Shown: one piece after another, positions 13,061 to 64,000 of the stretch
Layout: every line of letters starts with the position of its first letter
How positions within the stretch are numbered: position 1 is the first letter of the stretch
Source: Isurus oxyrinchus
Taxonomy: Eukaryota
Assembly: GCA_026770705.1 (NCBI GenBank)
Contig: JANJGN010000019.1
Location: 105,090,001 to 105,154,000 of the forward strand
DNA length: 64,000 bases
Direction: 5' to 3'
Translations under genes and position numbers: made by a program
Notes under the pieces: generated by a model
The model's input: the letters and a program-made list of their open reading frames with translations, nothing else
Told to the model about the DNA's origin: nothing
Databases searched by the model: none

Positions 13061-13920
13061 CAAGACTTTAGCTTTCTGTCCATAAAACTCATATCTTTCA
13101 CTCACTCTCACACACAATCTCTCTGTCTCACACACACACACGTGTAAATACATCAGCACAAGAATCAGAAGTTAAGTACCATCTTATGCTATATACAAAG
13201 TTATTTTTGAACAGATCAGTCTGAGCTGAATGTTGAATCATTCACATCACTACCATTTTGTCCTGGCGTTCACATAGTACTTGCACCCAGCTTCCCAGTC
13301 CACACAAAGGGCTCACTCAAATTGAGGAGACGGGCGGTGTTGACATTGGACTTCTCCATGGGCTGGGTGTCATGGCTGCAAATCGGGTGGTCAAGCCCCC
13401 GCCACACCCGCTCCCCGCCCCTGGCGCATCCATAAATGGACGATGATGTTGGGTCAGCAATCTGAAATCACAGAAGGCAAGCGGGTGCGGAAATCAAAAG
13501 CCTGTCCGCCATTTTGAAATGACCAATTCACAAGCTATTGAGCTCGTTAAAGAGCCAATTGCACGCAATTTTTTGCTGCCCACTGCGCTTCCTGGGAGTT
13601 GGATGGGAAAAAAAAATGTTTGGAGTGTTTTATGGCAGATTTGAGAAGGTGGTACCAGAGTGGGAGAAAAGGCCTTCTGATTGGAGCACAGCTGCATGTA
13701 GCAGCAGAGAATTGGGGGTGAAGGTGGCAGCATTTGAATGTTTTTTGACTTCATTTATTTTTGAGTTCATGTTTTGTGCCTGCCACACAGAATAAGGAGA
13801 GATTGAGAGGGCAGGGGGTCTTTAAATTGGCGGCTGTGACCCACTTTTGGTTCACGGTTTAACCCCTCATCCACGTGACCTAGATGCGCGATCGGGGACA
13901 AAGCCCCCCCCCCCCACCCG

Positions 13921-14030
13921 GCACCGCTAATTGGCCACCTTCCCACTAGGCAGCCGCTGATTGGCCACCTTCCCACTAGGCAGCCGCCGATTGGCCACCT
14001 TCCCACCAGGCAGCCGCCGATTGGCCATCC
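13921..14030. repeat. 30-bp tandem repeat, about 3.7 copies, each with a CCAAT box
   Basis: Units start at 13921, 13951, 13981 and 14011, consensus cagccgcygattggccaccttcccacyagg. Confidence 0.95.
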
Positions 14031-14377
14031 CATGCTCGATTCACCGGGATGAGCGGGCCACTCACTTTCTGTTCTGCCTTCTTCACCCTGCTCCAAACCG
14101 TAAACTCCAGCCCTGCGCCTTTTCCAACGATAAATCAGTGTGAACAAGCGAGAGGCCTCATTCAGGTGGGAAAAGACAGAAATTCTCAGTATCCTTTGCC
14201 CTCGAGAGATGCTGGAAGTGTCTACTGTGCCTCCAATCCAGAAGCAGCAAAACACACTGAAAAAAAAGCAAGAGAGTTCCGCTAAACTGAGTACATTTCT
14301 GGGCCGCAGCAGCATGCATTTATTTAGCATCTTTAACGTAGAAAAATGTTTCAGGGTGCTTCAATGGTATAAGCAAT

Positions 14378-14685
14378 AAAGAGCTTGCATTTCACTTCCT
14401 CAAGACATCCTATAGATTTTTCATTCAATTAATTACTTCTGATGCTTTATGATGGCAGGAAATTGTGGAAGACAATTTGGGCAAAGTGGCGATGAGATAA
14501 GTGGCCGGATAATCTATTCGACTGACATCAATTGAGGGATAAACCTTGGCCAGTTTTAATGGAAGGACTCCCCTAGTCATCTCTGAATGGTGCCATGGGA
14601 TCCTTTAAAGCCTAACTGAGTGGATTATAGGCTCAAATCGCTGGAATGGGGCATGAACCCACAGTCTTCTGGCCTGACAACCAAT
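14378..14685 (-). mobile_element. Degraded Deu-domain tRNA-SINE (SacSINE1-like)
   Basis: Aligns by eye to the copies at 15636-16048 and 62581-63025 (ttgagggataaa..ttggccag, gtgccatgggatc, tgaacccacag). Confidence 0.7.
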
Positions 14686-14917
14686 AAGGAATTGGTTAAC
14701 CTTTTGCCTTTCTTATGGTTTCACTTTTGTGATTTATTTCTGCATTTGCTAATGTATTATAGCCCCCAGCGCCATCACCCAGAAACATAGGTGAACAGCA
14801 CTCACCCTCCTTTTTCAAACCTGTAGCTGTTGCTTCAACTCCACGCCTGACGTTAGGACCTAGGTGAGATAAACTTTCTTTCCAGTTTAGCATGGTATCA
14901 GCAAAACCGAATTCTTC

Positions 14918-15390
14918 GGGCAGAATGCTTCACTGGGCCTGCAGGTGAACGAGCGTCCTGACATCATCGCGCACTCGCACAATATTTTGGTTGGCGGGCG
15001 CGCACTAAACCCAGAAGCTTGCCCGCCGACAATTAAGAGGGCCGTTAAGCCCATTAGCGGCGCATTTAAATGAGATTTTTCACTGCCCGCCCAACCTTAC
15101 AGTTTGGCAGGCCAGACAAATCGGCCAGCCGGCCTTTGTGTTTTCTTTTCAGGAAACCTCATCCGAGGAGGGGACGAGGTTTCTGTCGTTAAATAAAAAA
15201 TAAATAAAAACGTTTGGACAGGACTTCAATGCTGCATAAGTGGAGGTGACTGTTTCTGATGTGTGGGCATATTTTCCTGGTTTTTAACATCTCCATTTTT
15301 TTTTTGGACTTAAATTCTTCAGCTCCCTGAGGCAGCTCTCTGCCTTCGGGGGGCTTTCATTTCACGCTCCCCCACCCCCCACAACCCCAC
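14918..15390. mobile_element. CpG-rich DNA-transposon-like fragment (possibly a PIF/Harbinger terminal region)
   Basis: Abrupt CpG-rich block starting gggcagaat..., resembling recalled shark non-autonomous elements. No partner terminal repeat was found. Confidence 0.35.
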
Positions 15391-15635
15391 ACACACACCT
15401 GGGGGATGTGGGCATCACTAACTCGGCTAACATTTATTGCCCATCCCTAGTTGCCCTTGAGAAGGTGGTGGTGAGCTGTGGAACTTGGGTCACTGTTCAA
15501 ATCATAACTGAGCTCCCTTAACCACAAATACCCCTCGTTCCACCTCCAGAACAGGTAAAAACCCAATCTAATTCACATCTTTAATCACAATTTCTTTACC
15601 ACTCCCCCACCCTCCCCATCATCTAGATGCCCAAT

Positions 15636-16048
15636 AAAGAATTGCGTTTATTTAGCATCTTTCACAACCTCGGGATATTCCCAAAGCAATTTACAGCCAA
15701 TGAAGTATTTTTTGGCACTATTGCAACGTAGGAAACATGGCAGACAATCTGCGCACAGCAAGCTCCCACAAACAGCAACTTGACAATGACCAGCTAATCA
15801 ATTTATTTAGTGGACTCATTTGAGTGATGAATATTGGCCAGGACACCAGAGAGAATGCCATGTTATAATGCCTTCGGATCTTTTATATTCACCTGAAAGG
15901 TTAGAAGGGGCCTTTGATTTAACATCCCTTTGAAATGATGGCACCTCTGACAGCGCAGCACTCCCTCAGAACTGGATATGGGCGTAAAGCTCTGGAGTGG
16001 GGATTGAATCCGCAATCTAATGACTCAGAGGTGAGGGTGGCAACAAAT
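15636..16048 (-). mobile_element. Deu-domain tRNA-SINE (SacSINE1/AmnSINE1 superfamily)
   Basis: Reverse complement matches the copy at 62581-63025: tail aaagaattgcgtttatttagc, core tgacagcgcagcactccctcag, tRNA-like head gggattgaatccgc...tgactcagagg. Confidence 0.85.
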
Positions 16049-44515: not shown

Positions 44516-44780
44516 GTAAGCTAAGTCCAGTCCTTCCATGCCCTAAGTGTAGCGTCATTACTTTCTCTATCCCTCCCATCCACTTCACCTGTCATGCCCA
44601 CCATCACAGGGTTTTCCTTCTGCCTGCTGCCTGCCTTGCCTGTCTTCTTTGCACCCACGGGGAAACAAATCCTTCAGACAAGAGATTTGTGAGGAATTTA
44701 TCCACCCCACGGATCCTAAAATACACACAAAAAAAAATTATAAGGGATCTTTTTCACTATCGAGTAGTCGACCTTGCTGA

Positions 44781-44876
<96 letters not shown>

Positions 44877-47256
44877 CCTTCATCTAGTTAACCAATCGCA
44901 AAGCACGGGGGAAGTAAGTACGATCGGGCTGTTTATTCTGTCTATTACTGTAGTGCAATTTTTTTTTTAATTCCCACCCAACCCCCACCCCCCCCACTCC
45001 AATTTTTTTCTCCTTGCCCGTATTTGCATGCTATTCCAATAAAGGGCCAGTTGTAATGATTTATCTCATGACATTTGACACCATTTCGCAAGCTGCAAAA
45101 GGTCAGCTAACTAATTTACAGTATACAGAGCAAATTAGGTCTGGAGTAATTCTGTTTAATTATGAAGCCCAGAGAATCAAACTCAAGCAGCGAATGAACA
45201 ATTGGGACATTTAAGGGAAAAGAAACATCTTCAGGGCACCAATTGACTTGAGAGAAATTAACCAGGCTTCACGAAGCGATAAAAACGAGAAGTGAGACTG
45301 TCCTTTGAGTGACATAAATCTGTCAGGAAACGATTGATGCATGAATTATCTTATATGCAAAAATGAAATGTTGCAGTTCGCAATCTGCAGTCTGGATATA
45401 TGGTGATACAACACATTCCTCACTGGGAGCACCCCACCAACGCGCCCCCACCCCCACACCCCCACCCCCCCCCCCACCCCAATCCCAGGCTTGAAAGTAT
45501 ATCCATCGCCTCCTGTGTGAGATTAAAATAAAGAGAAAGGAAAATGTAAAACTAAACAGTAACAGACATTAAGAGATGACTGCAAGTGAAGGAATGGAAC
45601 CGGCAGAGAAGCTGATTGGCTGCAGTCTAAATAATCCATCAGTTGGAGTGTGTCCAATGTATGTGATGTTTGAGGAATTCAGATACATCAAACAGCAATA
45701 CATCACATCACTAAGGCATCAGAGCATGAGGTTTTATTTAATAACTGAAACTCTTTGCTACCATTGAGCTTAATGCTTACATTTGAAAAAGAATGGCAGA
45801 CTATTTCATTATTAAATCATCTTCAATCCTTTTGTACTCAAAGTTGTATATCCTACCCACAAAAAATGACTTTCCCGGCAGTCGCTTAATGCCCACTAGG
45901 TTGTTTCAGATTATTTAAAATAATGGTTATAGTTTTGTGCAAGATCTTTGAGGGGGTTACCTTAGTGCATTAGTGATGGAGTCAGTATCTTGCCTTCCTT
46001 TCTTTACTAATGCAGTCAAAAAAATGCTAAAAGCAGTGTTCCCTAAAACAGCCATTGAGACAACATTTTCTCAGCTTGGATAATTCTTAATATAGGCCAT
46101 ATAATTTCTGGCCTATTTAATTACATAACATATTTTATGCTTCATAACCAATTACATTAATGGCTTAATACAGATAATATTATCCTCCTTTTATTTGATT
46201 ATGGAGCCACACAATATGGTATATTTGGTACTTAATTATCATCATCCAGTGAGCATGCTGCTGTGCTAGAATAAACAGAGCTGAGTTGGACTTATTACAC
46301 AGCGCAGACAGTATTATTGTCTCAGTATGGTTTTACCACTGTGGTTACTAATGTACTGCAGATCTACTTAAAACAATGACAACAGCTTACAGGTCTTTAG
46401 ATTACCAGCTTATAGTGTCACTAAAAACTATTCAGCAATTAGGTTGGTAAATGCTAGTGGATGAATGGAGGTACAGTTAATTCCCTCTAATTTAGCTCTG
46501 CATTGCAAACTATATTGATAGTTATTTTGTAATAAAAGTTAGCTCTAGTTAGATGGATGGAATCAATGATCTGATTAATATTTGCTGGCAGATCTTTCCC
46601 AATAAAAGCCCATATCCCACGCTCTCAAAGCAACAGGTATGACCCCCTTCTTCCCTTTTCTGCTTCAAGTTTCAGTTTTATATTAAGGAGAGCCCAATCC
46701 AAATGTCCCACAATAGTCGTAAAAACGTTCATTAACTGAGGAGCATTTTCCCAGCTTACCTGAAAAGACTATTAATTTGATGTACTTTTCTTTATTTGGA
46801 TCAACTGTTTGTGTGAAAGGGAAAGACCTCATTGCATCAGATTTCTTGCATATAAATATCTTCTTGCTCCCTTGCCATATTTCCTTTAACAATAACTTCT
46901 CTGGTTCTGCTTAATCTTCAGCTTTTTTTTCTATCGGTCCCTCTATTCTTTTTGCCTGAAACTTGATCTTTTTTTCTTTCATGAACCGATGTATCTCCTG
47001 TGACCTATGAGTAAGATTGAACGCATGGTTATTGAATTAATCATTGTGACAAGTGTCTTTGATTTATAATTATAAAATATCTGCAAATATGTAATAGCAC
47101 ATATACATCAATAATACTGTAACTCTATATGCACAGGGAAGAATGCACCCACCATATAAGAAAACCACTAATGAGTCAAAAGAATAAGCTCTTAAATAAT
47201 GCTTTTTTTTAAAGAAAATATTAACACATTGTAATGGTTTGCTCTTGTCTTTTCAG

Positions 47257-47543
47257 GTTTACAAGGCATGCCAGGGGACTATGTATCTCAGGGTGGTCCT
47301 ATGGGTATGAGTATGGCACAGCCAAGTTACACTCCTCCCCAGATGACCCCACACCCTGCCCAGTTAAGACACGGACCCCCAATGCATTCCTATCTCCCGA
47401 GTCACCCACATCACCCAGCCATGATGATGCATGGAGGACCCACGCCTCACCCTGGAATGCCAATGTCAGCACAAAGCCCCACAATGTTGAATCCTGTAGA
47501 CCCCAATGTGGGGGGACAGGTTATGGACATCCACGCCCAATAG
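47257..47543 (+). CDS. MEIS2: MEIS2 terminal exon, long C-terminal activation domain (coding only when the cassette exon is skipped)
   Basis: Acceptor cttgtcttttcag|GT. Reads (G)LQGMPGDYVSQGGPMGMSMAQPSYTPPQMTPHP...NVGGQVMDIHAQ-TAG (ORF track 47268..47543), matching the recalled MEIS2 long-isoform tail. Confidence 0.97.
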
Positions 47544-48645
47544 TATAAGGGAAAAACATGAGAAAAAAATGTAAGACTTTAAAATTTGAACAGATGTTGA
47601 CACTTAATGGAATTCCAGATGAGCTGTGATTTTTCTTTTCACTCAACGCCAGCAGAGGACCAATGGCAAAGCCAGGCTAACATGGAGCCAAAAGCTTTCT
47701 TCACCTGAAATTAACTCCAATGTAAAGTTCCTCTGGAAAAAGACTGAAAGATTTATTACTACTGTAGCATAAATATAGGAACTAAGTTAACTTGTACATT
47801 TCTGTTGATCACTCTATTTCTGTTGCTTCCAATAGTTTTTAGAAAGAAAGTTATCCTTTTTCCACACTATGTGTGTTGTTCTCAAAATGGTTGTCCTCGT
47901 ACAGCAAATGGAGCCACGTTTCAGACCAGGTTGCCCAAGTCCAGCCAACTTGCCATAGAGGAAGAAGCTAAGATGAAGATCCATGAGACACTTTTGGATG
48001 CGGCCATAGGTGAAAGGTTTTAAGAATGCACTAACATACCTGATTTTTCTGGAACAAATGCGGCCTGTAGTGACAAAGCCTACCTGGTCCAAGTGAAGGG
48101 CCTATGTCTGATCATGTTCAGGATTGACTCTTCTCCAGAGAGCTTGTTGATGGAAACCTGAAGATGAATTAGCAGCTTCCTGCTATGCCTGTGGGCCACA
48201 GCATTGAGAAAATGTTGTCACACAAACAACTCAGAATGCTCTTGGGCAGACTTTTCTTAATGAAATTTCCTTTTGCTGGTCTTGCACCAAAACAGAGACC
48301 TTTTTAAATGAACTCAAACTGCTTGGAACAAGCAACGACAAAACAAATCCTGTAACATACTTGGTACAGAGAGTTCAGTATATTAATTGTTACATGTTAG
48401 ATATCTATGTGTTTACCTCAATGAGAAATAACGAATGTTTTGCTAGTATCAAATCTGCTGTGGAATTGGTATTGTATGTCAATGAATTCCTTACTTTTAT
48501 CAGCACGTTGTCACTAGAAGAAAATGATGTTTCCCTTGCGAGCTTTGTCAGATTACATAAATACTTGTATGAGGACTGTGACGTATGTTTAAAAGGTGTT
48601 CAGTCACAAAATGCCGTAATAAATATTTCATTTTTAGATTTTTTT
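47544..48645 (+). other. MEIS2: MEIS2 3'UTR (to the proximal polyA site)
   Basis: Follows the TAG stop and is free of recognisable repeats. Ends just after AATAAA at 48618-48623, followed by T-rich sequence. The exact cleavage site is not determinable. Confidence 0.75.
48618..48623 (+). terminator. Polyadenylation signal AATAAA (proximal)
   Basis: gtAATAAAtatttcatttttagattttttt with a downstream U/GU-rich tract. Confidence 0.7.
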
Positions 48646-49542
48646 CTGTTTGATAACACACCTGTAATCGCTTCAACTTTCTTGGGATTTTGCAACAGAC
48701 TCCTCCAGAAGTGTCTGCAGCTAAAGTTTTTGTTTTGGTTGTTGGTTAGTTCAATCCTGTATGGTTCACATTGAATCCATTGATGTGAAGTTTTATATTT
48801 GATCGCAGGCACCGAGTGATATTTGAAAGATGTGGTCGTTTGTGTCCCTTCTTCAGATGTGGGCATTGTTTAAAAAAAAAGCAGGAGGATTTTATTTTTC
48901 TTTCTATAGCAATGAGCAGAAAAGCAACTGGGGATTATAAGCTCAAAGGAAAGGAAGCGTGTGGAGTATTTTAACAGGGTAACTTCTCTACAAAAAGAAA
49001 TCTACATGTTGTACAGTGTTTCCAACACCAACACTCACCCGGAGAATATGAAATCTGGCCTTTTGAGTGGGACAACTTTATCAGTAGGTATTGAGTTTAA
49101 ACAAATTTGAAAAAATGATACGAGCCACCATATCCAACTTTACAAAATCTTTTCTATAATCGGCGTCTTGTGGTGTTTACATCCCCCTCCACCCCCCAGA
49201 ATTGTACATTTATTGATTTTGAAGTGGTGGAAGTTCATTTTTAAACAGGCCAAGCCTCGAAACAGCTCTATCCACTCCTCCCTATCCCTTACAGGGCTCC
49301 CACCAAAACCAGCTGTCAAAAACACACACAAAAAAACCCCCCAGCTGATCTCAAACCCTACTTCTGATCTTTAAGTCAACGGGCCTGAACTGTTCCAGAG
49401 TTTTTGCAAAGTCAGTATGGTGGCAGGATGGGGAATAAACCTATTTATAGAAATGTGGAAAATCAGATCGGGCAGCATTTGAAGTGAGTTATATTGTATT
49501 TAAAACCCTGGAGGTTTCTCCTTTTTGTTTACAGAGCTTCTT

Positions 49543-49548
49543 AATAAA
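49543..49548 (+). terminator. Candidate distal polyadenylation signal AATAAA
   Basis: cttAATAAAagtttattt, followed by ATTAAA and a GT-rich ctgtgttatgt within about 55 nt. Confidence 0.45.
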
Positions 49549-49699
49549 AGTTTATTTAAAAAAAAAGAGCCTGGGTTGATACCATTAAAACTGTGTTATG
49601 TACAGAGAGGAATGGCTGAAGGTTTTGGTCACGTTTCGATATGCTGCATAGTTTTGACTGTGGGACATGTATTTTTTTGCGTTGTGAGAATTGGAAACT

Positions 49700-52600
49700 G
49701 ACCATCTGATGTGTTTACTGGTAACCTTTTTTTGGAGGCTCGTCTGTAATGAACATCAGTCACGTTCCTCTTTCCCTTTCATTCACAGAGAGAGAGAGAG
49801 AGAGAGGGGCATTATCTTCGCATTTCAGGAACTAACCTAACCTTCGGCGCCTGTTGCAACACAGCGATGGAGGTGCTCGCTGCATTTTCTGCGAGATTTT
49901 CTGGCTTTGATTCCAATATTCAAACTGTTCATCTCTGCTGGCTCTCCTCCCAAAGCATTTCCACTCACCGGCTTTTGGAGTTTCAGTTGAACTTTTGTAA
50001 CTTTTCTGGGTGCAATGCAGCGGCAGCCGCTGTACGAGTCCCTCCTCAATATTAACTGGGTTCCTGTGACCTGTCTTCTCTTAAGTTCAGACGCTTAAAA
50101 AACACTTTTCGAAAACTTGAGAGAGAGGGAGAGAAAAAAAAAGCACCTGATATTTTCTTGCCGTTAACCCGGGGACAGGAATCCATTTGAAATTATCTCA
50201 TTTTTATTATTATCGTTTACAACAGTCGATCTGAATCTTGGAATTTTTTTTCCCGGTTAAATACTTGTTATTAAATGAGAACAAGACTGTGTTATTTTTG
50301 CCAGTGGATTTTTTAAAGCAGATAGGAAATAATTCTCCTGATAATTGTTACATTTCAAGTCCCGCTGTAGGAGTGTTAGTTTTAATGAATGACGCTGGTC
50401 GCAAAATCAGCAACCGGGTTGCAGTTTAAAACTGAAAAGGTTTCTTGCCCCGTTGATGTTGAATAAAATCACAAAGAATGAGTTTAGACCACCCCCACCA
50501 CCTTTTTTGTGTCCCCTTCAGCCTTCTAAACCTTATAGATATCACTATTCTAACCCCTTCCCCTATGATGTATAGTTTTACAATCTTTTCACCCGATCTT
50601 TTTTTTCTCTCTAGTTGAATGTGCAGAGTGAGATTGCGGACTGCACTCCGCCAACGCGAAATTCATATCTACCGGAGAAAGAAGCCCCACATTAACGGGG
50701 GGGGGGGGGAGGGGGGGCGGTGGAAATGTTTAAGAAACCGCCTTTTGTCCTGACGGCGAGAACATCTCGTTCTGGGGACGAGCCTTTGTGAAACTGGAAA
50801 CTTCAGTGCAGATTCGGTATCGACTCCCCTGTTAAATGTATTCTTGGGGAAATTGATTGAAATGAAACAAACAGTTCCACTAAAGTAATTTAAGGGCGGA
50901 AATCTATAAAAATCAGAGTCCAACAAAAATTCCATTTACATAATTGACAACTGCAAATGCAAAACTATATTTTTTATCGCAATAAATAAGGGTGGGGGTG
51001 CGGAAATCAAGACAAGTCATCACATTTCTTTAGATTTCATTACTGGAACCCGTCCCAGATAAATTACTACTGAAATGAATAACGAGGCGGCTCATTTCTT
51101 AACTGCGAACTCTTTTACTCTGAAGAATGTGCTCAGACCAGCGGAGGAAAAGGCAGTAGCATTTGAATAGTTTTTTTTCACATTTATACATTTTGGAATT
51201 TTTAACCAACCATTTTAGTTGTAAACATGTTACTATGGAGACTGCGTGTATCCCAACCCCTAGAGCCCAGTGTGGGTCAGAGAAAACGCTGCTATTTCTT
51301 GAAGATCATTTATCACTGTCACAAGATAATGATTCCCGCAGCAACCTCCTATTGATGTTTATAATTGCATTATCTCATATGGAATGATCAATGAAAACGG
51401 GAGCCAGGCATGGGATAATCAGGAAACGCTCCCAAACAAAAAAAAACTTCTTGGCTCTTTTCAAAAGATAGTGTTTAAAAAAAAACCCTGCTTTATATAG
51501 TCGATTCAGGTCTCTATTTAGTCCTGGTCAGGTTTTATCTTCCAAATCCAACAAGGTTACTGTTCCGACGCCTGAGAAGTCCCCAAATAACCAACATGAA
51601 CAGGGGAAAAGGAATCAATTCGGATTGTGTTACTGCCTCTCACGGAAGTTATGACAAATTACTTGTGAACGCTTTCTGAAGATTCTTGGCTTTTAGCGCA
51701 TCGCCCGAGTAAATCAATGCAAATGAATGGCCGAGCCGCAGTTGTCTGTACCTCTCTGGGTGTGCACACAAATACCCAAAATACAGCCTGTTTCTTCTTA
51801 AAATTTGCCAGCTTTGATTTGCTAATTTGTCAGTGTTTTTGTACATTCTTTGATTTTTTTTTTAAAAAAAGGTGGTTTATTTTTCAGCCTTTATAACCTC
51901 CATTAAATATTAACCAATTGAAAACGAACGCAAATCTCTTCAGAACAATTTAGAGAGATTGACTGGTTTGATTTTGTAACCCCCGACACTTGGAAACGCT
52001 TCGCAGTTAGAATCTTGATCTAAAGCCCAGGCAGAAGTGTTTACCATTATATTCTGGAGCACTTTTTGGTTGTGGAATGAAATCGCCCCTGCAAAACGGG
52101 GCACAGAACTCACCAGGCCACACGTTAGCTGAACTCGCGTCTATTACACGCCACTTTTCCTAGTTTCTCTTCCGTGAAATGGATGGGATATGTGGGGAGG
52201 GGAGGGGGGGGGGGGGCGAAGAAACGATTAATCTTTTGATAAGTTTTGCAACTGTTGTGTTAGCCACGTTTAATACTACATTGCATTCAGTCAGAAGCCG
52301 TTAGATCAAAAATTGGCAACGGAAGATTTGGGAACGTTCGCATTATTTTTTTCCCCCAAATCCAAATTTCTGCTTCCCCTGCTAATCTACTCTTTTAAAA
52401 AAAAGTCTTGATCTCATCGTCGATGCATTCAATGGTTATTCATATTTACCCAAGTTGCGGGTGAAAATGTATTGGTTCTTATTTTATTCGGTGCAATGAA
52501 GCTTAGTTAATAGTTTCTGATTGTTCTCCGGGAACGTCAGGCCGTCTTTATGTGTTTTGCTTCCCTTGCGATCCGCTTCTTCCCGAACCTGCACCTTGTG

Positions 52601-55600
52601 TACCGGTTTCAAAAATCAGCTGGCAACAATATCCTTATAACTGGGATCCTTCCAATCTTACTGAGGGGATGCCTCAATATCGGGCTATGGTATATATCGG
52701 GATGTCTGGGACACCATAGTCACAGTATAGTGAATAATAAAGGAAAGCGGGCGAGTTAGAACTGGTAGGATGTAATATTGTTATTAAATATATAAATACA
52801 TGTGACGTCAATTTATATTAGTTTATAAAGGCGTCACATTTGTTTTTTATTCTGTAGGAGACTAGTATGTGTATAATAACAGCCTAACCAGACTGAAGTA
52901 CAACTAGTGCTCAAGGAAACGATGTTGTTCATTTCAGGCTTGTAGAGAGCGGGTCTGATTTTAATCATGTCTTTATCTCTCCTGTATCTACTGTAGAAAG
53001 CTTGAGTGACTTTTACCTAACGGGTTGTATATGGAGACATTATACATTAACTTGCAGAACGGATGGATACAATATGAAGCAGGATGTTGGGGATGGTGAT
53101 CGCATTGCGCTATCACAACTGGAAGGTTAGGTTCACGATAGATGACAAATAGTTAGAAGATGGAGAGGGGGTTCCGTATTCCTCGCAGTATAAACAGTCA
53201 TTGCTTCATCAAATCAGTTTACTGGATCTCAGTTCTTATTTGAAACAAGCATTTTATAAATATATATATATATTTAAATATAAGCGTCAACAGATTATTC
53301 CCCGCGGGAAGTTCCGAATTTTTTTGCATAATTATCCCCAATGTATAACTGCCAACTCCTGTCTGCATTTGAAAATCAAGGAAAGAGAGGGGTTAACAGC
53401 GAAATCAATCTATTTATCATTTGTAATATTTTCCACCTTTACATGTAAGATTTACAGGTCTGTGCAGACTCTGATGTGAAAACAGATGTAGGCAAGAAAT
53501 AGAGAGAAACGAGTATCATTGAAACCCTCCTGTTAGGGCGACTCGATAAAACTCCCTCGTTATTTATAAGTGTCTTAGAGCGGTTTCTCCCCCCCCCCCC
53601 CCCCCCCCCCCCCTTTCCCTGTTGGCAATGATTTTATTAGAAAGAAATGCAAATAAAATTAAAAACGCGCATCATTTTTCCATTAGCAATTTGATTTATA
53701 AATACGCATGACCAATCAACAAAAGTACGCAGCTTGATCTTGCAGAATACTTACTATCAATATTACATGGGCGATTGCAAAAAAAAATTAAAGTCTGCTA
53801 TAACAAGGAAACCAACGAGCTATTAGAAGCCCTGATTAATAACTAGCTGGATAATGTTCACAGCCTTTTCTGCCCGACTGCTTTTTGAATTAGAGACGGT
53901 TCCACACTCTCCAGAGTGTCTATCTTCTAGAAGAATGAGTGACAGATATTTTTCCCTCTCTCTCTCCTCGAACTTAATGATGTAAATATTCTAATTAGTA
54001 AATCACATTTGCTGAAGACTAGACCATGAGGGTGGAATCGGCGTCTCTCTAAAAAGGCGGCCAAGTTAGATGATAGGAGAGACTTCTTTTTAAAAAAAAA
54101 CAGGAGCGTATAAAACTTGAGATAAAGTTTTGCCCGGAGCTCAGGAAGTTGGGCTATTTTCAATCTACTAAGATTTAATTAGAAGCCTCAGGCGCGACGC
54201 TCGAGTGAAGACCCCCTTTTTTCTCATTAGCTTCTCCTCACTAATCTTGGGTGTTAGGTTGGCTTAAAGGTTGTCAACGTTTGACCGATTCCGTGAAAAG
54301 AAAATATATCATCACTTCGGGAGTCGTAGAGCAGGGCAGGCAAATCGTGCGCGAACCAGCGGAACTAACAGGCGCAAAAATGTTGATAATTTATCGTTGC
54401 AAATTGCTGTTATTTTCGACCAAGCATTAATATTTTTCATCCCTCTTGCAAACAAAAAAAGGTTATAAATATCCCGCGGGTGGTTCAGAGCTAATGTGGG
54501 TATTTTAATTGCATCAAGATTTCATGATGAGTGTAAATAAGGGTCCTGGATTGAGAGCCCGGTTTTGTCCACTGACCGAACGGGGAGAGGTTTACCTTCA
54601 GATAGTAGTCGCTCATGGTCAATGGAGGGAGCGACATCCGAGCGCCCCCAACAGGACAGTGCGGACATCAGACAACTGACCGGCAGTCCCAACACGTGGG
54701 GGCGAGCCTGAGAGATCAACAATCTCTTCATCCATAATGTTTGTAATCAGGACAGTTTTAATCATCAATTATGTACAAACACACACCCAGGAATGTGCAC
54801 ACCAAGCGGGGAGGCACTGCAGCCCAGAATCTGATCATATTACAGACCTGAGAACCCCATCCCGGCAGGTATGGCCATTTCGGCGTTTGGTTACTCGCAC
54901 TGTAAGTGCGGTTGCAAATATTTTACAAGACAGAATTAGAATGCGCCTTATCAATGTGGAAGCACGGTCCTTTTTTTATATATATATAAAAAAATAGTGA
55001 GAATCCTCTAGGAAGCAGGACTCCGGCTTGGAAAGTGGAACATGATCCATGTACCGTACCTCCCAGAAAGGATCAGGTTGCTGATTCCGAGACGGAGAAA
55101 TGCAAAAGTTACTGACATCGTACATGGAGGCAGCCTCTGGCATCGTAGGCGAAAGTTAATATTCTGGAACATCACACAGCTAGAATGCAGCCCCGTCTCC
55201 GGGGGATGACCTGTTTACCTACGCAATTAATCCAAACATAGTTTATCAATAATAAAAAAAAGCATATCTGATCGAGAACTGGCTCACGCTTGTTTAATGT
55301 CTGCAAAAGAGACGTTTTGGGAAAGAATGGCAGCTCAGCCCCATCTAGGTCTTAAAAACTTTATATTTAAAAAAAATGCGAATTCCATTACTCATCTAAC
55401 ACCAAGGGGGAAATGAATGATCAAATCACACGTTCAGTTAAATTAATGAAAAAATACAAAGGACCCGCCCAATTCTAAACCACACTAATGATGAGCTGAA
55501 AGTACGTGCTTGCTCGCTAATGAGAAAAGGGCGTTCGCCCCTCTCCTGGTATAATAGCGAAATTAGTCATCGAGCAATCTTAGAATATTATGCAAATAAC

Positions 55601-56200
55601 AAAGGCATTATCAGAATTTTATCGTTTAACTATCAACCCACGCCCTTCATTGCGACAGTTCTGATCACTTAACACCATCTTCGCTCAGGTTAAGGCTGAA
55701 TGAATCACAATGCTGCTCATACTCTTAAATAGGCAGTAAATTCTATTGTTACCGTTTACGTACTGGTAACTATAGAGGCTTGTCGGAGAACACAGAAATA
55801 ATCCACGTTAAGTGGATTGTAAGAAGTAACTGCATTGCAGGATATTTAAACACAAACATGTTGCATTCATTTGTTTGTTTTGTGCGATTGATTTGCAGCC
55901 AGCATCTCCCCACCCCCGTCACGGAAAATAAACAATAATTTCAATTAGTATTCAACATTGTTCTGTAAAATATTATGCCAACCTTTGACTTTGTCCCCGA
56001 AATGTTTTGCCAACTTAAATCATCCTCTCTTGCAGATACGGTGGAAGCAGTTGATAATCGAATCTTGCGCGACGATTGTTTTAAAATTATTAACTTATCC
56101 GTCACGCATCGTGAGATAGAACCCAGAACAGTAAAAAAGGATGTTACTCAAATCGCAAATGATAAGCCGAAGAAAAAATTAAACATGGGAGAAAGTTAAA
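49700..56200. promoter_or_regulatory. CpG-retaining, transposon-free domain immediately downstream of MEIS2
   Basis: Hand count: 19 CpG in 54121-54480 versus 1 CpG in an equal-length intronic stretch, 36481-36840. CpGs stay frequent across the interval despite moderate GC. Confidence 0.7.
49787..49806. repeat. (AG)n microsatellite
   Basis: agagagagagagagagagag. Confidence 0.9.
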
Positions 56201-59200
56201 GGGAGGAATGGTTTCAGAGATTTGATTATAAAAGAGCCGAAGAACTAAAATTACTAGGGGAAAATGGTTTGGAGAAAAAGTAAGCGTAATGTTCAAAATC
56301 TTACTATGATGGTAAATAATATCATTAGAAATACATGTTAATTAAAATAGTCATGTAAGTTATGTGAGACACTGGAATTAATCCATTACAAAAAGAATGA
56401 GCCTAAAATCTTTCAGCGGAAGATGTAATGCATAGTAACTATATTATTTGCTTTGCATATCTGAATTCCATAGAGTCATCTTTGATCTGTTTGAGGTTTA
56501 TTCTGTGTAAGCAATTTACACGTTGGAGTTAATACCAAGCAAAGAGAAATTTAAACAATGCACTGTAAGCCTTGTTGACATCTTTAGAAAAAGGCCAATC
56601 TACCTGGCTGCTAACCTATCAAGACATAAGCCCTAAACAGCATGAGAGATCAGGATATTTTATTCACAAAATAAAAATGCTTAAGTTCTTTAATTACGAA
56701 AACAGGTCTGTGTCATTCAGGAGCAATGATGAGCCATTAAGCATTGACTCAAATGTTTAATTGTCAATGATACTTTGCAAGAAAAGCTCAACGTTAAATA
56801 TGCTTTACGATTGAAGGATTGAGTAGCAATGCTAAGTACCATAGCCTCAGTAACAATAACAAGAGATATTAATACGCTGGAAATAGATGCTAGAAGGAAG
56901 AGTTTTAAAAGGGAAGCCACATTTGGCAATGAGGACCCCCAGTTAGCAGCCGGAAGCATTGGTGCTGAAAAGCAATAGCTGGTGACAGGAACTTTTTTAA
57001 GCTTCAAAGAGTGCAGCTGACAGCAATATATACTTTTCTAACAACAGTTAGTGGTAGAGTATAGTTTACCATTCATGAAAAGCAATGCTGTCCATAGCTC
57101 CATTAATTTTGGTATTACAGTAAGTTAATCTTAAATGACTATGTCATAAGGATATATGATAACTGACTAGAAATTGAGAAAAAAAAGGCACAAAAGTACT
57201 TGAATGCATTTACGAGGGGTATCAGCTAAATGAACACTGATGCTCAGCACTTTCTTTCTGCTTTGTTTATGATCCAAATGATAAACAGCCTTGCTCTGGA
57301 TCACATCCAGTTGACAATTATATTTTTGATTTGCTATTGGACATACAAAAGCTAACATCTAGAAATATTTAATTGAAAGCCATGGGTAATTTGCCATTGC
57401 ATATGTACTGATATATTGCATAAATGTCCATCAAGTTATATTCCTTAGGGGGAAAAAAATCATCAGGCATTTTTAAAAATCCAAAGGATATATTTATTCT
57501 CCCAAATTTTGTTTCACTATCACTCCCTTCCAGTTGGGAGGGGGGGAAATGATAGAGCTATAGATTTCCCATGGCCACTGGGTTACTTCATTGGCAGCTA
57601 ACAGGAAACATGAATTTAGTGGGATTTGGAATGCCATTCCCTTTCTACCGTCTTCTCTCAAGCAGTAGGTGGAATCCCTTACGTATCTCTTACAATCTTG
57701 CAAAAAAAGAGTAGGGTCAGAAAAAATAAGAGCTGGCAATACAGGACCTATCCATTTGTTCGATCTCATGCACCTCCCAGCCCACTCATTAGCTCCTGGT
57801 TGGGGGAACAAAACTCCAGAGAAACCCTCATCTGGTTATCAGGCTGAAAACTGGCCAATGTCACTTCCTGAGGTGAGCAACTATGAGTGACAGGCTGGCT
57901 GTGATTTGAACTCTCGACTTTCTGTTTGGGAGTAAAATGTCCTACTGCTTGAACAGTTGGTCAGTGATTTGTTCACATAAGCCACCTATTGAACCAGGGT
58001 GGGGGAAGGATTGGTAAACAAGCAGGAGGAGAAAGAAACAAACAAAATGGTTTATCAAAAAACTGGATACCTTTGCATTCATATCTTTCACTGTACAGTA
58101 CCACTTCCGAAACATCTGCCTTTGATTTTTTTTTGCAATAAATTCTGCAAAGTTAATCCCTTTAGTTAAAATGAAAAGTCCATACGACTCTCATTTGAGA
58201 CCATTCCTGAAATCAGAAAGTTACAGGTATTTATTTGCTCCTGTAATATCAAAATGTTCCCTGCTGCTTCCCCAGATGCATATTCCTCGCCCAACAATTG
58301 AATTTCATTTTCCTAACTCATATACTTAATCTCATCTCTCAAGAATGCTGTGCTCCCTTTGAGTACTATGCTTGCAAAGGCATGGTGGGGAAGGGGGGGG
58401 AGGTGGTGGGGGGAGCGGGGGTGGACAGAAAATGTAAACAGGAATGTTGAAAAACCAGCTCAGGCCTTACCTTTTCACTCAAGGTCACCTGCCAATCTGC
58501 AAATGACCTTTAGTTTCGCAAATATAATCCAGCTTGATCCATGCTGGACGTTTCTTGCCCACTGCAACTTAATCTGGTCACTGCAGAACTAGCTGGTATT
58601 CAGGAAGTACGGGTATGTTTCCTTGCTCTATTTTCTAGCTGAGCTCACTGTCATCACTTCATAGTCACTCATCACTTTCCTGTTTGCCTGCTCTTCCCTC
58701 TTTGATCCAGCCTTTCTTGTCATCCAAACACAAGTATAATTAATAATACTGCAAATACCAGTTTATGCCTCCTCCCCAAAACATAATTAAATATGATTTT
58801 AACAGAGTTATTTGCAATTATTTACTCATTCAAATCCCTTTATGGGAAGGTGCTTAACTGCTAAGCAATTTCTTTTTCAGATTTATATTTGTCTGGTTTA
58901 GTCCTACCATTGCATTAAAACTTTATTATATAATTAGAATCTATACTTGTGAAAACTTTATGTTTAACAAATGCTCAAAGCAAATAAATATGCAATGCTT
59001 GCATAATGGAAATTTGAACCCTTTTTAAAATCCCGTTCTCAGTTAAGCTCCGGTTTTCATGAGGCTCCTTTCTGGCAGTATGTCATTAGCACACATCTGA
59101 CCATTAGTATGCTGACCCTGCCTCTATTTCCAGGGTCAGCCTAATTTACATTCTGTGGCCAAGCTCTTGGCATCAATAATGCTTCTCATTGGAAGTTTGC

Positions 59201-60333
59201 CTTTTAGCAGGAATCTCACCGCAACGTTATATTAAGCATATATGCCAACTAATACGTTCACAACAAATATACATTCCCTTAAGGAATAAAAAACCCCATG
59301 GGAAAAGTGATCTAACTGTGGCTAACTAAAGAATTTAAAGATAGTGTTGGATTAAAGGAAGAGACTTATAACGTTGCCAAAAAGAGTAGTAAATTTAAGG
59401 ATTAAGAGGATTTTAGAATTCAGCAAAGGGCGACCAAGAACTGATAAAGAAGGAGAAAGTAGAATTTGAGAGTAAACTAGCAGGAGGCATAAAAACAGAT
59501 CAAAAGTCAACAAATCCCCTGGCCCACAACCTAGTATTAAAAAGATAAGCGGATGGATTGGTTTTGAGCTTTAAGAATTCCCAAGATTCGAGAACAGTTC
59601 CTATGGATTAGAAGGAAACAGAACATAATACCGCTATCGGAGGAAAGGAATGAGTGAACACAGGAAACTATAGGCCAGTTAGCCTAACATCAGTAATTGA
59701 AAAATTGCTAGAATCTGTTGTTAGGGATATGGTAAGAGGACATTTAGAAAATCATAATGTGATCGGGCAAAGTCAAAATGGATTTATGAAAGGGGAGCTG
59801 TGTTTGAAAAACCTGATGGAACGGTTGAGTTTGAAATAAGCAGAGTAGGGAAGGGGGGAATGAATGGATATAGTGCATTTGGATTTTCAAAAATCTTCAA
59901 TAAGGCACCACACCAGAGGTTAGTATATAAAATTATGGTTCCTGGGATTGGAAGTAATATGTTCACACAGATTGAGGATTGGTTAATGGATAGATGATAT
60001 ACAGAAATAATCAATGATTCATTCTTGGGTCGGCAGTTGTAACCAGTGGATACTGCAGTCAATGATCTAGATGAGGAGACTGAGTGTAATGTATTCAAGT
60101 TCCTGATGGTACAAAGCTGGATAGGAAAGTAAACTGTGAGGAAGTCACAGAGAAGGTGTATAGGAAGGTTAAGGGAATGGAATATTAATAGTAAGATGGA
60201 ATATAATGTTTAGAAATGTGACATTATCCACTTTGGGAGGGAAAATAGAAAAGCAGAATTTTTTTAGAATGTTGAAAAACTGGGAAATGTTGGTATTCAT
60301 CAGGATTTGACTGTTCTTATGCACAAAGTTACC

Positions 60334-60416
60334 AAAACAAAAACTGAATTACCTGGAAAAACTCAGCAGGTCTGGCAGCATCGGCGGAGAAGAAAAGAGT
60401 TGACGTTTCGAGCCTT
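60334..60416 (-). mobile_element. Short Penelope-like pLTR insertion with 10-bp TSD
   Basis: Near-exact reverse complement of 20164-20242, flanked by CAAAGTTACC (60324-60333 / 60417-60426). Confidence 0.9.
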
Positions 60417-60996
60417 CAAAGTTACCATGCAGGTCAGCAAACAATTAGGAAAATAAATGGCATATTAGCCTTTGTTAAATTGTGATTGGTGTACAAGAGT
60501 AAAGGCGGCATAGTGCAATTATATAGGACCTTGGTGAGATCACACGGGGAGTACTATGTACAGTTTTGGTCTCCTTACCTAAGGAAGGATATACTTACCT
60601 TAGAGGGCTGGAACAAAGGTTCACTAGACTGATTCCTGGAATGCAGGGATTGCACTATGAGCACAAATTGTGTAGGCCAAGCATATATTCCCTAGAATTT
60701 AGAAGAATGAGAAACAAACTCATTGAATCATATAAAACTCTTTAAGGGGCTTGACAGGGTAGATGCTGGGAGGATGTTTCCCTTGCTGACAAATCTAGAA
60801 TTGGGCTCAAAGTAAGGGGTCATCTAGAACTGAGAGGAGAATTTTGTCTTTGGAATTCTCTACCCCAGAGAGCTATGAATGCTCCAATGTTGACTATATT
60901 CAGAACTGAGGGCAATATGTTTTTTTGTATACTAAGGGAATTAAGGAATATGGTGATAGTGTGGGAAGGTGGAGTTGAGGCAGTGACCTTATTCAT

Positions 60997-61435
60997 TATT
61001 GCTGAAAAGAGAGACATGTTGCTGAAGCTTTTAGTCTTGCACTCATCAGGACAAATGCAAGAATGCCAAGTTTCAAACATTCACAACAATTTATTCTACA
61101 GGAGGAAAGGGTGCTGATTGGTTGGCAAGTCAACTCTGAGTGGCCGAGGCATTGTCATGGAGAAAGCAATGGGAAATGCTTGGCTCCCCAAGTTCCCGGG
61201 TAATTCAAAAAAGGCACAAGGTTTGAGCATGTTCCATTTGTTTGCAGAGAATGGGTCCGTGTATATGAATTGATGTCACTTCTAGCAGGTGTAAATGAGC
61301 CACATTACAAGGTCTAATTATTTTCTTAAATTGATTGCTAGAGTAGCTATTAGCACACTACACTCAGGATTGTTCAGCAAGTGCTTCAGCAACATGTCTC
61401 TCTTTTCAGCAATATTCAAGTTCTGTATGACCAAG
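60997..61435 (-). mobile_element. Second Penelope-like family fragment with inverted pLTR ends
   Basis: Minus strand reads HLLNNPEC...NQFK...NVAHLHLLEVTSIHIHGPILCKQ (GIY-YIG C-terminus). Perfect 32-bp inverted repeat 60997-61028 / 61383-61414. Confidence 0.8.
61019..61054 (-). ncRNA. Degenerate minimal hammerhead ribozyme-like motif
   Basis: Minus strand TTGTC-CTGATGA-GT(gcaag)AC-TAAA-AGCT-TC-AGCAA: canonical CUGAUGA and palindromic AGCT, but GAAA has become TAAA. Confidence 0.55.
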
Positions 61436-61864
61436 TGACTGATCTTATTGGATAACAACATAAGGGGCTGAATGACCTATCCCTGCTGCTTTTTAAAATC
61501 TTCTTCTGTAGAGTTACACTCCATAAGAAACCCTAACTAGGAGGACATCCATTAGCCCTCATTTTATTAAATGTTTTGAGAAGGTAACTCAGCTGAGACA
61601 CTATTGGAGGGGTAATGGTTAAAAATTTTCAGAGCTTTCACTAGATTTCTCATTGCCCTTTTTGTTCTCCCTTGAACCTAGTCACTTAGTGACACCAGTG
61701 GGTCCATTGGAGCTCGATTCCATGATGCTCATTCTGCTAGCTACAGCTAAAAAATTCTTATCAAGGTAATATTTGTAATATTGATCTTCTGCTGTTGTGA
61801 CAATTGGTATTCAACAGCCAGAACAATCTTACTGTGACTAGGTTGTCCCAATACTCATCTGGCT

Positions 61865-62357
61865 GGCTTCCCATCTTCTATCCACCATAAACTTATCCAA
61901 ACTTTGCTGTCTGTATCCTAACTCACACCAAGTTTCGTTCACCCATCACCTCTGGGCTCATTGACCTACATTGGTCCAGCAACACCTTAATTTTAAATTT
62001 TTGCATTCTTGTTTTCAAATCCTCCCATGTCCTCATTTCTCTCTATTTCTGACTTCCACCAGCCATATAATCCTCCGATTTCTCTGTGCTTCTCCAATTC
62101 TGACCTTATGTGCATCCCCTATTTCAATCTCTCTCATGTTGATGGCTGTGATTTCAGGAATTCCTCCCTAATGTCTCCCTCTCTCACCTCCTTTAAAATG
62201 CTCCTTAAAACCTACTGCTTTGACCAAGCATTTAACATCTTCCCCATCATCTTCCTTCATGCCTCAGTCAAATTTTGCTTCCTAATGCTCCCTATGAAGT
62301 GCCTTGGGGAGTCTTGCTACATTAAAGGTGCTGTATAAATGCAGGATGCTGTTGTTG
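61865..62357 (+). mobile_element. L2-type LINE 3' end
   Basis: atcctaactcacaccaag...cacccatcacc...gacctacattgg; tail attaaaggtgctgtataaatgcagg..gttgttg. Confidence 0.85.
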
Positions 62358-62580
62358 TCTCAGGTATAAGCAGCCATTAGAGGGTTTCCCTCCTCACCTC
62401 CGACGGACCTTGAATCTTCTGAGCACCTTAGTGTCACATTTGGTCAAATGTTGTCTTAATTTTAAGGGCTGTTACTCACCCCTCTCTTGCATCTTGCTGT
62501 TTTGTCAATGTATTCAATAAGACTGTAAAATCGTACGGGGCAAGCATGTGAATTGGTGGACAGGTGCCATTTGATGCTGT

Positions 62581-63025
62581 GTCAGTCGTGGCTCAGTTTG
62601 TAGAGCTTTCATCTCTGAGTCACAAGATTGTGGATTCAAGTCCCACTCCAGAAATTAAGTACAAAAATCAAGGCTGATATTCCAGAGCAGCACTGAGGGA
62701 GTGCTACACTGTTGGAGGTGCCACCTTTCAAATGAGACATTAAACCGAGTGTCTGACCTCTCAGGAGAACATAAAAGACCCAATGAATCTATTTCAAAGA
62801 AAAAGCAGAGGGGTTATCCTCAGAGTGCTGGCTTTAACCAAATACAAAAAAATCCAGGAATTATCTGGTCATTTTCACACTGCTGTTTCTGGGAATTTGC
62901 TTGCACAAATTGGCCACTATGCTTCCTACAACATTGACTACATTTTGAAAAGTACTTCATTAACTGCAAAAAGCTTTGGAACATCCACCGTTGGGAAAGA
63001 CGCTATTTAAATGCAAGCCTTTCTT
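62581..63025 (+). mobile_element. Full-length Deu-domain tRNA-SINE (SacSINE1-like)
   Basis: Pol III A box TGGCTCAGTTTG (62589-62600) and B box GGATTCAAGTCC (62632-62643); core actgagggagtgctacactgttggaggtgcc; L2-like tail gctatttaaatgcaag. Confidence 0.88.
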
Positions 63026-63499
63026 GACGGCTTCTTCCATTGCTTCAACAATAACAGTAATTGGACAGGAAGTGGGCAGGGACAGGCCAGATTAGGCTCT
63101 GCTATATAGACATTTAGCAGCTCAGATACTTCTGCCACTGGAGGATCATGTCACCTCCCAGGAGAACAAAACAATAAAGATGCGCAGATCACATTTAGGG
63201 AAGTAATGCCTATTTGCACTGAAGTTGTACTGTGTCCAGATGTTGGAGACTGTAAAAGCTGGTGGTGGGATTTACAGTTGTGGTAGCTCAGTGTTCGCTG
63301 TGTGGGTGAAGACATATTTATGAGGATATGGTCAAATACAGAGGACTCTTGCATGGGCCGGTAAGTACTTAGAATGTGAGTACCTCAATGAGACCATGAT
63401 AAACAGCTCCAAAAATTGGCAAATGTACTTCAGCAGCTGCACCTTCAATTTCGTCATCTCCTTGAGGTCATTCTTTGCTGTTCATTGTCTTCCTCCTGT

Positions 63500-64000
63500 G
63501 GCTGCTTCAGGTTCTCACCTTGTTGAATGGCAAGTTGGTGTAGCAGAGCTTGTTGAGGAGGAAACTTTGGCTAGATTGTATTGCAGGAAGTCATCTAACC
63601 TATCCAGGTCTTGACACCTCTGTAGCACGTTTGATGACAACTTTGGTTGATGCATCACCATATAAATAACCATGCGTGACTGTCAGCTGGGACCACAGAG
63701 GGTAGAATCAGTCCCTTAGAAACCAAGCACTCTTCTTTCTGGGTCAAATAATGGTGGCATGATTGATTACCTTAAAATAAAGGCATCAGGATTGCTGCGT
63801 GGGCAGCAATCACTCACCTGTATGATCCTGTGCAGATGGTAACACATTAATAGAGGAGTAATCCCTTGTTCATGCTTGAACAATTGAAGCACACAGGGCC
63901 ATTTGGGTGCCATCAATAACACCCTGGACCTTGGGTAACCTTGCTCCTTGTAAAGCTGCTGTCCCTCCTCATGCTGTCTGCAGGGAATGTGAAATGCTAC
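63500..64000 (-). pseudogene. Decayed PIF/Harbinger (HARBI1-like) DDE transposase
   Basis: Minus-strand fragments in the expected order with frameshifts: PKVQGVIDGTQMAL (IDGT at 63906-63917), RIIQV...DAFILR, LDR....LQYNLAKVS and LHQLAIQQG. Confidence 0.75.

Follow-up and report, generated by a model that had tools for sequence, protein, structure and literature searches.

Genes and features at the 3' end of MEIS2

The window analysed here is the whole 64,000-nucleotide stretch G000:C19:105,090,001-105,154,000 of the 4.98-Gb genome of the shark Isurus oxyrinchus, and our subject is a domain of about 6.5 kb, behind the last coding exon of the developmental transcription-factor gene MEIS2, that has retained its CpG dinucleotides at background GC content. 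The domain carries a predicted PBX-HOX/MEIS binding core, and a second domain with collinear conserved elements was found behind MEIS1. The features of the locus, in positions of the window, are the following.

47257..47543, plus strand: last coding exon of MEIS2 (ending ...MDIHAQ; stop codon at 47,541-47,543), from protein matches, the tblastn exon chain and synteny
47544..49548, plus strand: 3' untranslated region (UTR), in which AATAAA at 48,618, 49,434 and 49,543 are candidate poly(A) signals, from a sequence scan
49626..56175, no strand: CpG-retaining domain, likely a non-methylated island, single-copy and of background GC, from composition, uniqueness and fewer CpG transitions
51292..51384, no strand: duplicated conserved element 1, matching G000:C2:123,147,654-746 behind MEIS1 at 82% identity over 93 bp (genome-wide E 7.9e-15)
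51306..51321, minus strand: predicted abutting MEIS/PREP (TGACAG) and PBX-HOX (TGATAAATGA) sites, gap 0, from a motif match to rows of PMC4489388
53974..54017, no strand: duplicated conserved element 2, aligning with the MEIS1 3' domain at 75% identity over 44 bp, its offset within 21 bp of that of element 1
54465..54818, no strand: stretch where GC and CpG peak in the domain, with 200-bp windows that pass the Gardiner-Garden rule, from composition; the likeliest place for a promoter-like core, should one exist
55925..55962, no strand: possible third paralogous remnant, weak, of 38 bp, near the 3' edge, from comparison with MEIS1

The last coding exon shares 98% identity with Chiloscyllium Meis2a and 91% with the Meis1 of Carcharodon and of Cetorhinus, and three MEIS genes were found in the genome, namely that of the window on contig C19, one on C2 (91%) and one on C31 (71%). 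Downstream of the C19 gene, and tail-to-tail with it, lies a gene matching PF14811, which we take to be the C15orf41/CDIN1 family, its nearest matched exon being 36 kb past the domain, and ETAA1 lies downstream of the C2 gene. Passages of earlier work place c15orf41 downstream of meis2 (PMC3261376) and describe MEIS1 as flanked by ETAA1 (bioRxiv 10.1101/2025.08.05.665539). Because these neighbours match, the C19 gene is identified, from exon identity and synteny, as MEIS2, the name also given in an earlier note on this DNA made from its letters, and the C2 gene as MEIS1; by elimination, the C31 gene is MEIS3-like. A search of PDB with the last MEIS2 exon gave 0 matches and is uninformative, the exon encoding a disordered tail.

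The CpG observed/expected ratio (o/e) was followed along the window, a check that the earlier note had proposed, and the domain was confirmed, with its edges placed by a change-point fit at 49,626-56,175 (6,550 bp). It starts about 80 bp past the third candidate signal, the AATAAA at 49,543. The domain holds 216 CpG, at an o/e of 0.80 and a GC of 0.405, compared with 0.27 and 0.399 in the remaining window, so that the jump in CpG without high GC that had been claimed is recovered. At the background rate around 73 CpG would be expected (Poisson P 4e-42, for edges chosen post hoc). The excess of TpG and CpA detected outside (o/e 1.27 and 1.28) is gone inside (1.04 and 1.05), and GpC shows an o/e of 1.02 in the domain versus 1.09 outside. 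In tiles of 360 bp the contrast is around threefold, with means of 11.8 CpG inside (6-19, n=18) and 3.8 outside (0-19); the two samples of the earlier note, with 19 versus 1 CpG per 360 bp, are extremes.

The Takai-Jones rule for CpG islands (CGIs) asks for 500 bp with GC of at least 55% and o/e of at least 0.65; no window of the domain passes it, and the Gardiner-Garden rule is passed only in 200-bp patches. The domain shows the high o/e at background GC by which fish non-methylated islands are described in passages of Long et al. (PMC3583005). Cartilaginous fish genomes are globally methylated, according to passages of PMC5437953, and for this reason the retention of CpG is informative. Elsewhere in the window, an intronic stretch at 13,000-15,800 also has raised CpG (o/e 0.50, GC 0.47); it is partly multi-copy among the fetched loci and is probably a younger repeat.

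Mutation at CpG sites was studied with contigs of a related species, compared over 51,450-64,000 and thus over the domain from 51,450 onward. CpG sites were counted when present in either species or inferred to be ancestral, and 39 of the 113 differences were used, 40 being listed and one, in a repeat at 62,108, being dropped. The covered domain segments (2,313 bp) contained 25 differences, with 3 CpG transitions at 78 CpG sites, and the flank (1,120 bp) contained 14, with 3 CpG transitions at 9 CpG sites, so that CpG transitions are rarer in the domain (Fisher p=0.013, for 6 events). The total divergence from the relative was similar, 1.1% in the domain and 1.25% in the flank, which suggests, on these small numbers, that the CpGs are spared specifically and not through general constraint. 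Composition and mutation together suggest that the domain is very probably hypomethylated in the germline, which agrees with the cause that had been proposed.

The domain is single-copy. A genome-wide DNA search with 47,600-58,000, which passes over very common words, gave four matches, one of them the MEIS1 paralogous element and the other three a 33-bp stretch at (AG)n, and in a BLAST against 464 kb of fetched DNA only the element shared with MEIS1 matched between 47,555 and 60,099. Contig depth in two runs of the relative was mostly in the tens over 51.5-56 kb, with a maximum around 360, and most bins of 59.4-63 kb had depths between hundreds and millions. These three results bear out the absence of transposable elements (TEs) claimed from the letters. 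No tandem array was found in the domain beyond (AG)10 and a C25 run, and Pfam matched none of its eight stop-to-stop frames of at least 80 aa (81-108 aa), in line with the claim that it has no credible open reading frame (ORF). Rfam gave 0 matches in 47,500-58,000, and a scan with a loose CTCF-like consensus gave 23 hits in the 64 kb and one in the domain (54,655, minus strand), no more than chance.

Twin domains and shared elements behind MEIS2 and MEIS1

In the 264 kb around MEIS2 there are just two broad domains of high o/e, one of 15.2 kb that covers the promoter and the first exons (o/e 0.77, GC 0.44) and the 3' domain, around 118 kb after the first MEIS2 coding exon. The sole other o/e peak above 0.75 in these 264 kb is a spike of 1 kb, rich in GC and with o/e 1.25, at C19:105,064 kb; the patch that contains it (G000:C19:105,062,000-105,066,000, in a MEIS2 intron upstream of the window) has a GC of 0.55-0.64 and low-complexity tblastn matches, and is probably a tandem repeat. 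In the same genome MEIS1 has a 15.3-kb 5' domain (o/e 0.72) and a 7.7-kb 3' domain (o/e 0.62), the latter extending from +0.4 to +8.1 kb from the stop codon, compared with +2.1 to +8.6 kb at MEIS2. Among 30 arbitrary 10-kb loci taken at round-number positions, an o/e of at least 0.6 over 5 kb was reached in only one, a satellite array. This locus (L063, G000:C8:100,000,001-100,010,000) is over all its 10 kb a strand-skewed satellite of around 31-35-bp units with a CpG o/e of 1.13. The 5' end of the MEIS3-like gene (loci L079-L083 and L014-L023, on G000:C31) is without a broad 15-kb promoter domain and shows peaks of 1-2 kb near the first exons.

Elements 1 and 2 lie at +3.75 and +6.43 kb from the MEIS2 stop codon and are collinear with their MEIS1 counterparts, the offsets relative to the stop codons (MEIS2 versus MEIS1) being +44, +23 and -24 bp for the three matches over 8 kb. 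When 300 block-wise shuffles were scored in the band, none reached the score of element 1, one reached that of element 2 and 11 reached that of the third remnant. Element 1 was not found at the MEIS3-like locus, where the best nhmmer E was 2.3 in 150 kb. Unique, collinear non-coding similarity of this kind is what characterizes the duplicated conserved non-coding elements (CNEs) of vertebrate ohnologs, a class that McEwen et al. 2006 reportedly described. By these elements, the MEIS2 and MEIS1 3' domains are to be read as homologous and not merely alike, which argues that the 3' CpG domain is likely older than the MEIS1/MEIS2 duplication, itself presumably part of the early vertebrate genome duplications. 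The ancient age proposed in the earlier note would thus be a minimum, since MEIS1 has a homologous domain. Passages of Matsunami and Saitou (PMC3595034), with 4 supplement files included in our search for pairs, give one MEIS1/MEIS2 pair (chr15:36,985,668 and chr2:63,268,471), and it is a different element.

Other similarities among the MEIS paralogs were detected outside the domain. An alternative penultimate exon with an early stop (44,770-44,921) is conserved, together with its flanks, at 95% between MEIS2 and MEIS1 and 85% between MEIS2 and the MEIS3-like gene, far above the neighbouring coding exons. Another duplicated non-coding element, in the last intron (46,067-46,207), matches MEIS1 (77% over 143 bp, E 5.5e-17). 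A short 3' UTR motif at 47,850-47,898, around +307 to +355 from the stop codon, is common to all three paralogs and is a possible site for a microRNA or an RNA-binding protein. The 3' UTR region also contains a stop-to-stop frame of 188 codons (48,208-48,774) without a Pfam match.

The PBX-HOX/MEIS core and related known elements

The 16-bp core within element 1 has the same letters as the human element meis1.1705, which we take to lie a few kb past the 3' end of human MEIS1, and one mismatch to the C2 MEIS1 copy; it is one of two such site pairs (within 40 bp) in the 10.4 kb after the MEIS2 stop codon. According to passages of Grice et al. 2015 (PMC4489388), these 16 letters stand, with gap 0, at human chr2:66,805,839-854 in meis1.1705 (CRCNE00001705), and are conserved in human, mouse, rat and fugu; the element drove hindbrain GFP in all 96 GFP-positive embryos (117 injected) and spinal cord expression in 90, and the mutation of either site lowered hindbrain expression from around 90% to around 30%. 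Both elements thus have a gap-0 core and lie a few kb beyond a MEIS gene on its 3' side, although meis1.1705 belongs to MEIS1 and the shark element is a MEIS2 paralog with a predicted enhancer role. From the identity of its core, we consider it fairly likely that the MEIS2 copy has enhancer activity. A motif pair at human chr15:37,180,411 gave no near-match (up to three mismatches) in gene-sense orientation within 47.5-58 kb of the window.

At mouse Meis2 a RING1B-binding site (RBS) is known, reportedly from Kondo et al. 2014 in Dev Cell. It lies downstream of Meis2's poly(A) site and contacts the silent promoter, as described in passages of PMC8594714 and PMC10120301. The shark domain shares with it the position downstream of the Meis2 poly(A) signals; the mouse belongs to another vertebrate class and the two are likened by position alone, and on that basis the domain is probably the equivalent of the RBS. 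The shark element differs in its TALE enhancer core, none being mentioned in the review passages on the mouse RBS. Behind the paralog, a loop joins the human MEIS1 promoter to that of LINC01798, located 3' of MEIS1, and in zebrafish meis1b makes contact with conserved elements on its 3' side, according to passages of bioRxiv 10.1101/2025.08.05.665539, in such a way that a region 3' of a MEIS gene, as the shark domain is, contacts the MEIS promoter in both species. That region belongs to MEIS1 and shows active marks, with no H3K27me3 data in that paper. Among vertebrate MEIS loci sought in metagenome contigs, 36 pattern matches were obtained and 0 were confirmed.

Poised enhancers with orphan CGIs carry H3K4me1 and H3K27me3, followed by H3K27ac on activation. 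Their islands boost the contact with CpG-rich promoters, according to passages of Pachano et al. (bioRxiv 10.1101/2020.08.05.237768), and they combine a broad CpG-rich target promoter, such as the one at MEIS2, with a conserved transcription-factor core by the island, here the PBX-HOX and MEIS pair kept in both paralogs. Like the non-methylated islands of PMC3583005, the orphan CGIs and the tethering elements in passages of PMC13376775, the domain has multi-kb high o/e at background GC, lies off a coding promoter and has as its neighbour a developmental transcription-factor gene whose promoter island is broad. Non-methylated islands, orphan CGIs and Polycomb tethers are defined by methylation, histone and contact data, whereas the shark domain is known from sequence alone. 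Passages of PMC3583005 report H3K27me3 on 45-89% of the broad fish non-methylated islands, and the main text of that paper contains no mention of Meis1 or Meis2.

A proposed poised enhancer island and its alternatives

Our favoured reading, with a probability of around 0.55, is that the domain predates the duplication and is an orphan non-methylated island whose TALE enhancer core is autoregulatory, and that it would be Polycomb-marked and in contact with the promoter as long as the gene is silent. In silent cells its unmethylated CpGs would attract CxxC-type readers and Polycomb; the behaviour of the class makes Polycomb marks on the domain, placed through such CpG readers, quite likely. The island would favour contact with the 15-kb promoter island of MEIS2 while the gene is silent; by analogy with the literature, this contact is to be expected with somewhat better than even chances. 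Binding of HOX-PBX-MEIS would then switch the poised element on in hindbrain as well as spinal cord. The TALE core and the MEIS1 twin, both missed in the earlier note, lead us to propose an enhancer-bearing island rather than a pure tether.

Several points weigh against this proposal. The mechanism is read from sequence and literature and not from chromatin at the locus, and the mutation test is a small sample, with its six events from 39 of the 113 differences, a flank of 9 CpG sites and a set of differences that may be incomplete. The MEIS3-like gene is without a 3' domain (best downstream 5-kb o/e 0.42) and without element 1. The broad-island statistics in passages of PMC3583005 concern gene-spanning islands and not 3' orphan ones. 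The C2 element is equated with meis1.1705 through the 16-mer, the layout and human gene coordinates rather than a full alignment. At human chr15:37.16-37.19 Mb the table of PMC4489388 has no gap-0 pair and two rows of other spacing; mammalian MEIS2 may thus have a diverged core or none at all, which makes the link between the shark element and the mouse RBS weaker. Finally, activation brings the eviction of the mouse RBS, and expression in the midbrain is driven by another enhancer, the MBE (passages of PMC8594714 and PMC10120301), therefore the mouse site acts as a tether and not as an enhancer.

One alternative, the earlier note's model, is a pure Polycomb tether or silencer, that is, an orthologue of the mouse RBS constitutively occupied by Polycomb repressive complex 1 (PRC1) and looping to the silent promoter, with the TALE motif vestigial or acting elsewhere. 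The position downstream of the poly(A) signals as in mouse, the CpG-rich partner domain at the promoter around 118 kb away and the lack of a matching motif row at human MEIS2 all fit it, and orphan CGIs are over-represented in distal Polycomb tethering elements, with one such element at Hoxa2 that never becomes an enhancer (passages of PMC13376775). We nevertheless hold it to be rather unlikely, as both TALE sites are intact in both paralogs, the likely orthologue of the MEIS1 copy is a motif-dependent enhancer, and the retention across the whole-genome-duplication interval argues for use. The domain could also be the promoter island of a long non-coding RNA (lncRNA) similar to LINC01798, unmethylated as a promoter and with Polycomb and looping as secondary effects. 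Passages of bioRxiv 10.1101/2025.08.05.665539 describe a human MEIS1 lncRNA promoter 3' of the gene and a partly conserved transcript in zebrafish, and the GC/CpG peak at 54.5-54.8 kb would suit such a promoter. Two runs guessed to be RNA contain 0.09 and 0.05 of the words of 49,600-56,600, which speaks neither for nor against transcription, and in a guessed-RNA run of the relative, compared over 51,450-64,000, four low-depth contigs fall in the domain (51,450-51,731, 52,877-53,127, 54,030-54,190 and 55,023-55,192), with little or no cover over 55.2-59.4 kb. The run is not on record as RNA, however, and the contigs are unspliced, with depths of 2.8-6.6, so that read-through, enhancer RNA, a lncRNA and DNA carry-over fit them alike; among the 15 listed of 501 joints no GT..AG splice falls within the domain. 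A lncRNA promoter is compatible with the enhancer-bearing island and by itself leaves the TALE core unexplained, and we consider it decidedly unlikely as the whole explanation.

That the domain is a passive relic, its hypomethylation inherited or spread from protein-bound conserved elements and with neither looping nor Polycomb recruitment, would agree with the around 140 of 6,550 bp that align between the paralogs and with a divergence from the relative close to that of the flank. The sharp 3' edges at similar distances from the stop codon in both paralogs (+8.6 and +8.1 kb), and the lack of any recognisable TE in either domain, make this highly improbable. The two cases that the earlier note had set against its own proposal, a young CpG-rich repeat and the protein-coding promoter of an unrelated gene, were checked and are already largely refuted, in such a way that we give them almost no credit: CpG-rich repeats do exist in this genome, as the satellite among the 30 sampled loci illustrates, but the domain is single-copy, without tandem arrays other than the two short runs or Pfam matches in its ORFs, and the next recognised gene (PF14811) is oriented toward MEIS2, the closest of its matched exons lying 36 kb on.

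Going further than the enhancer-bearing island itself, a tentative and rather doubtful extension is that the RBS and meis1.1705 derive from one ancestral 3' CpG island that carried a HOX-PBX-MEIS switch and, prior to the genome duplications, formed a loop to the promoter. Cartilaginous fish would keep both copies (spacing within 70 bp over 8 kb), and mammalian MEIS2 would have lost the core and kept the tether.

The classes at issue, namely orphan islands, poised enhancers, Polycomb tethers and duplicated CNEs, have been described before, as have two individual elements, the mouse RBS and meis1.1705. Our literature search gave no report of a shared MEIS1/MEIS2 3' island or of a MEIS2 copy of meis1.1705, with Kondo 2014, McEwen 2006 and the bioRxiv supplements, outside its scope, as places that may hold part of it. 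The proposal links two literatures that we did not find joined in that search, one on the Meis2 Polycomb tether and the other on the PBX-HOX/MEIS hindbrain enhancer behind MEIS1. The MEIS architecture of a promoter island and a 3' island would date from before the MEIS1/MEIS2 duplication, and therefore from before the last common ancestor of jawed vertebrates. If the loop is true, a Polycomb tether would have come through whole-genome duplication while hardly any sequence beyond a 93-bp core stayed conserved, and the MEIS1/MEIS2 pair would offer a natural experiment on whether poised enhancers give rise to tethers.

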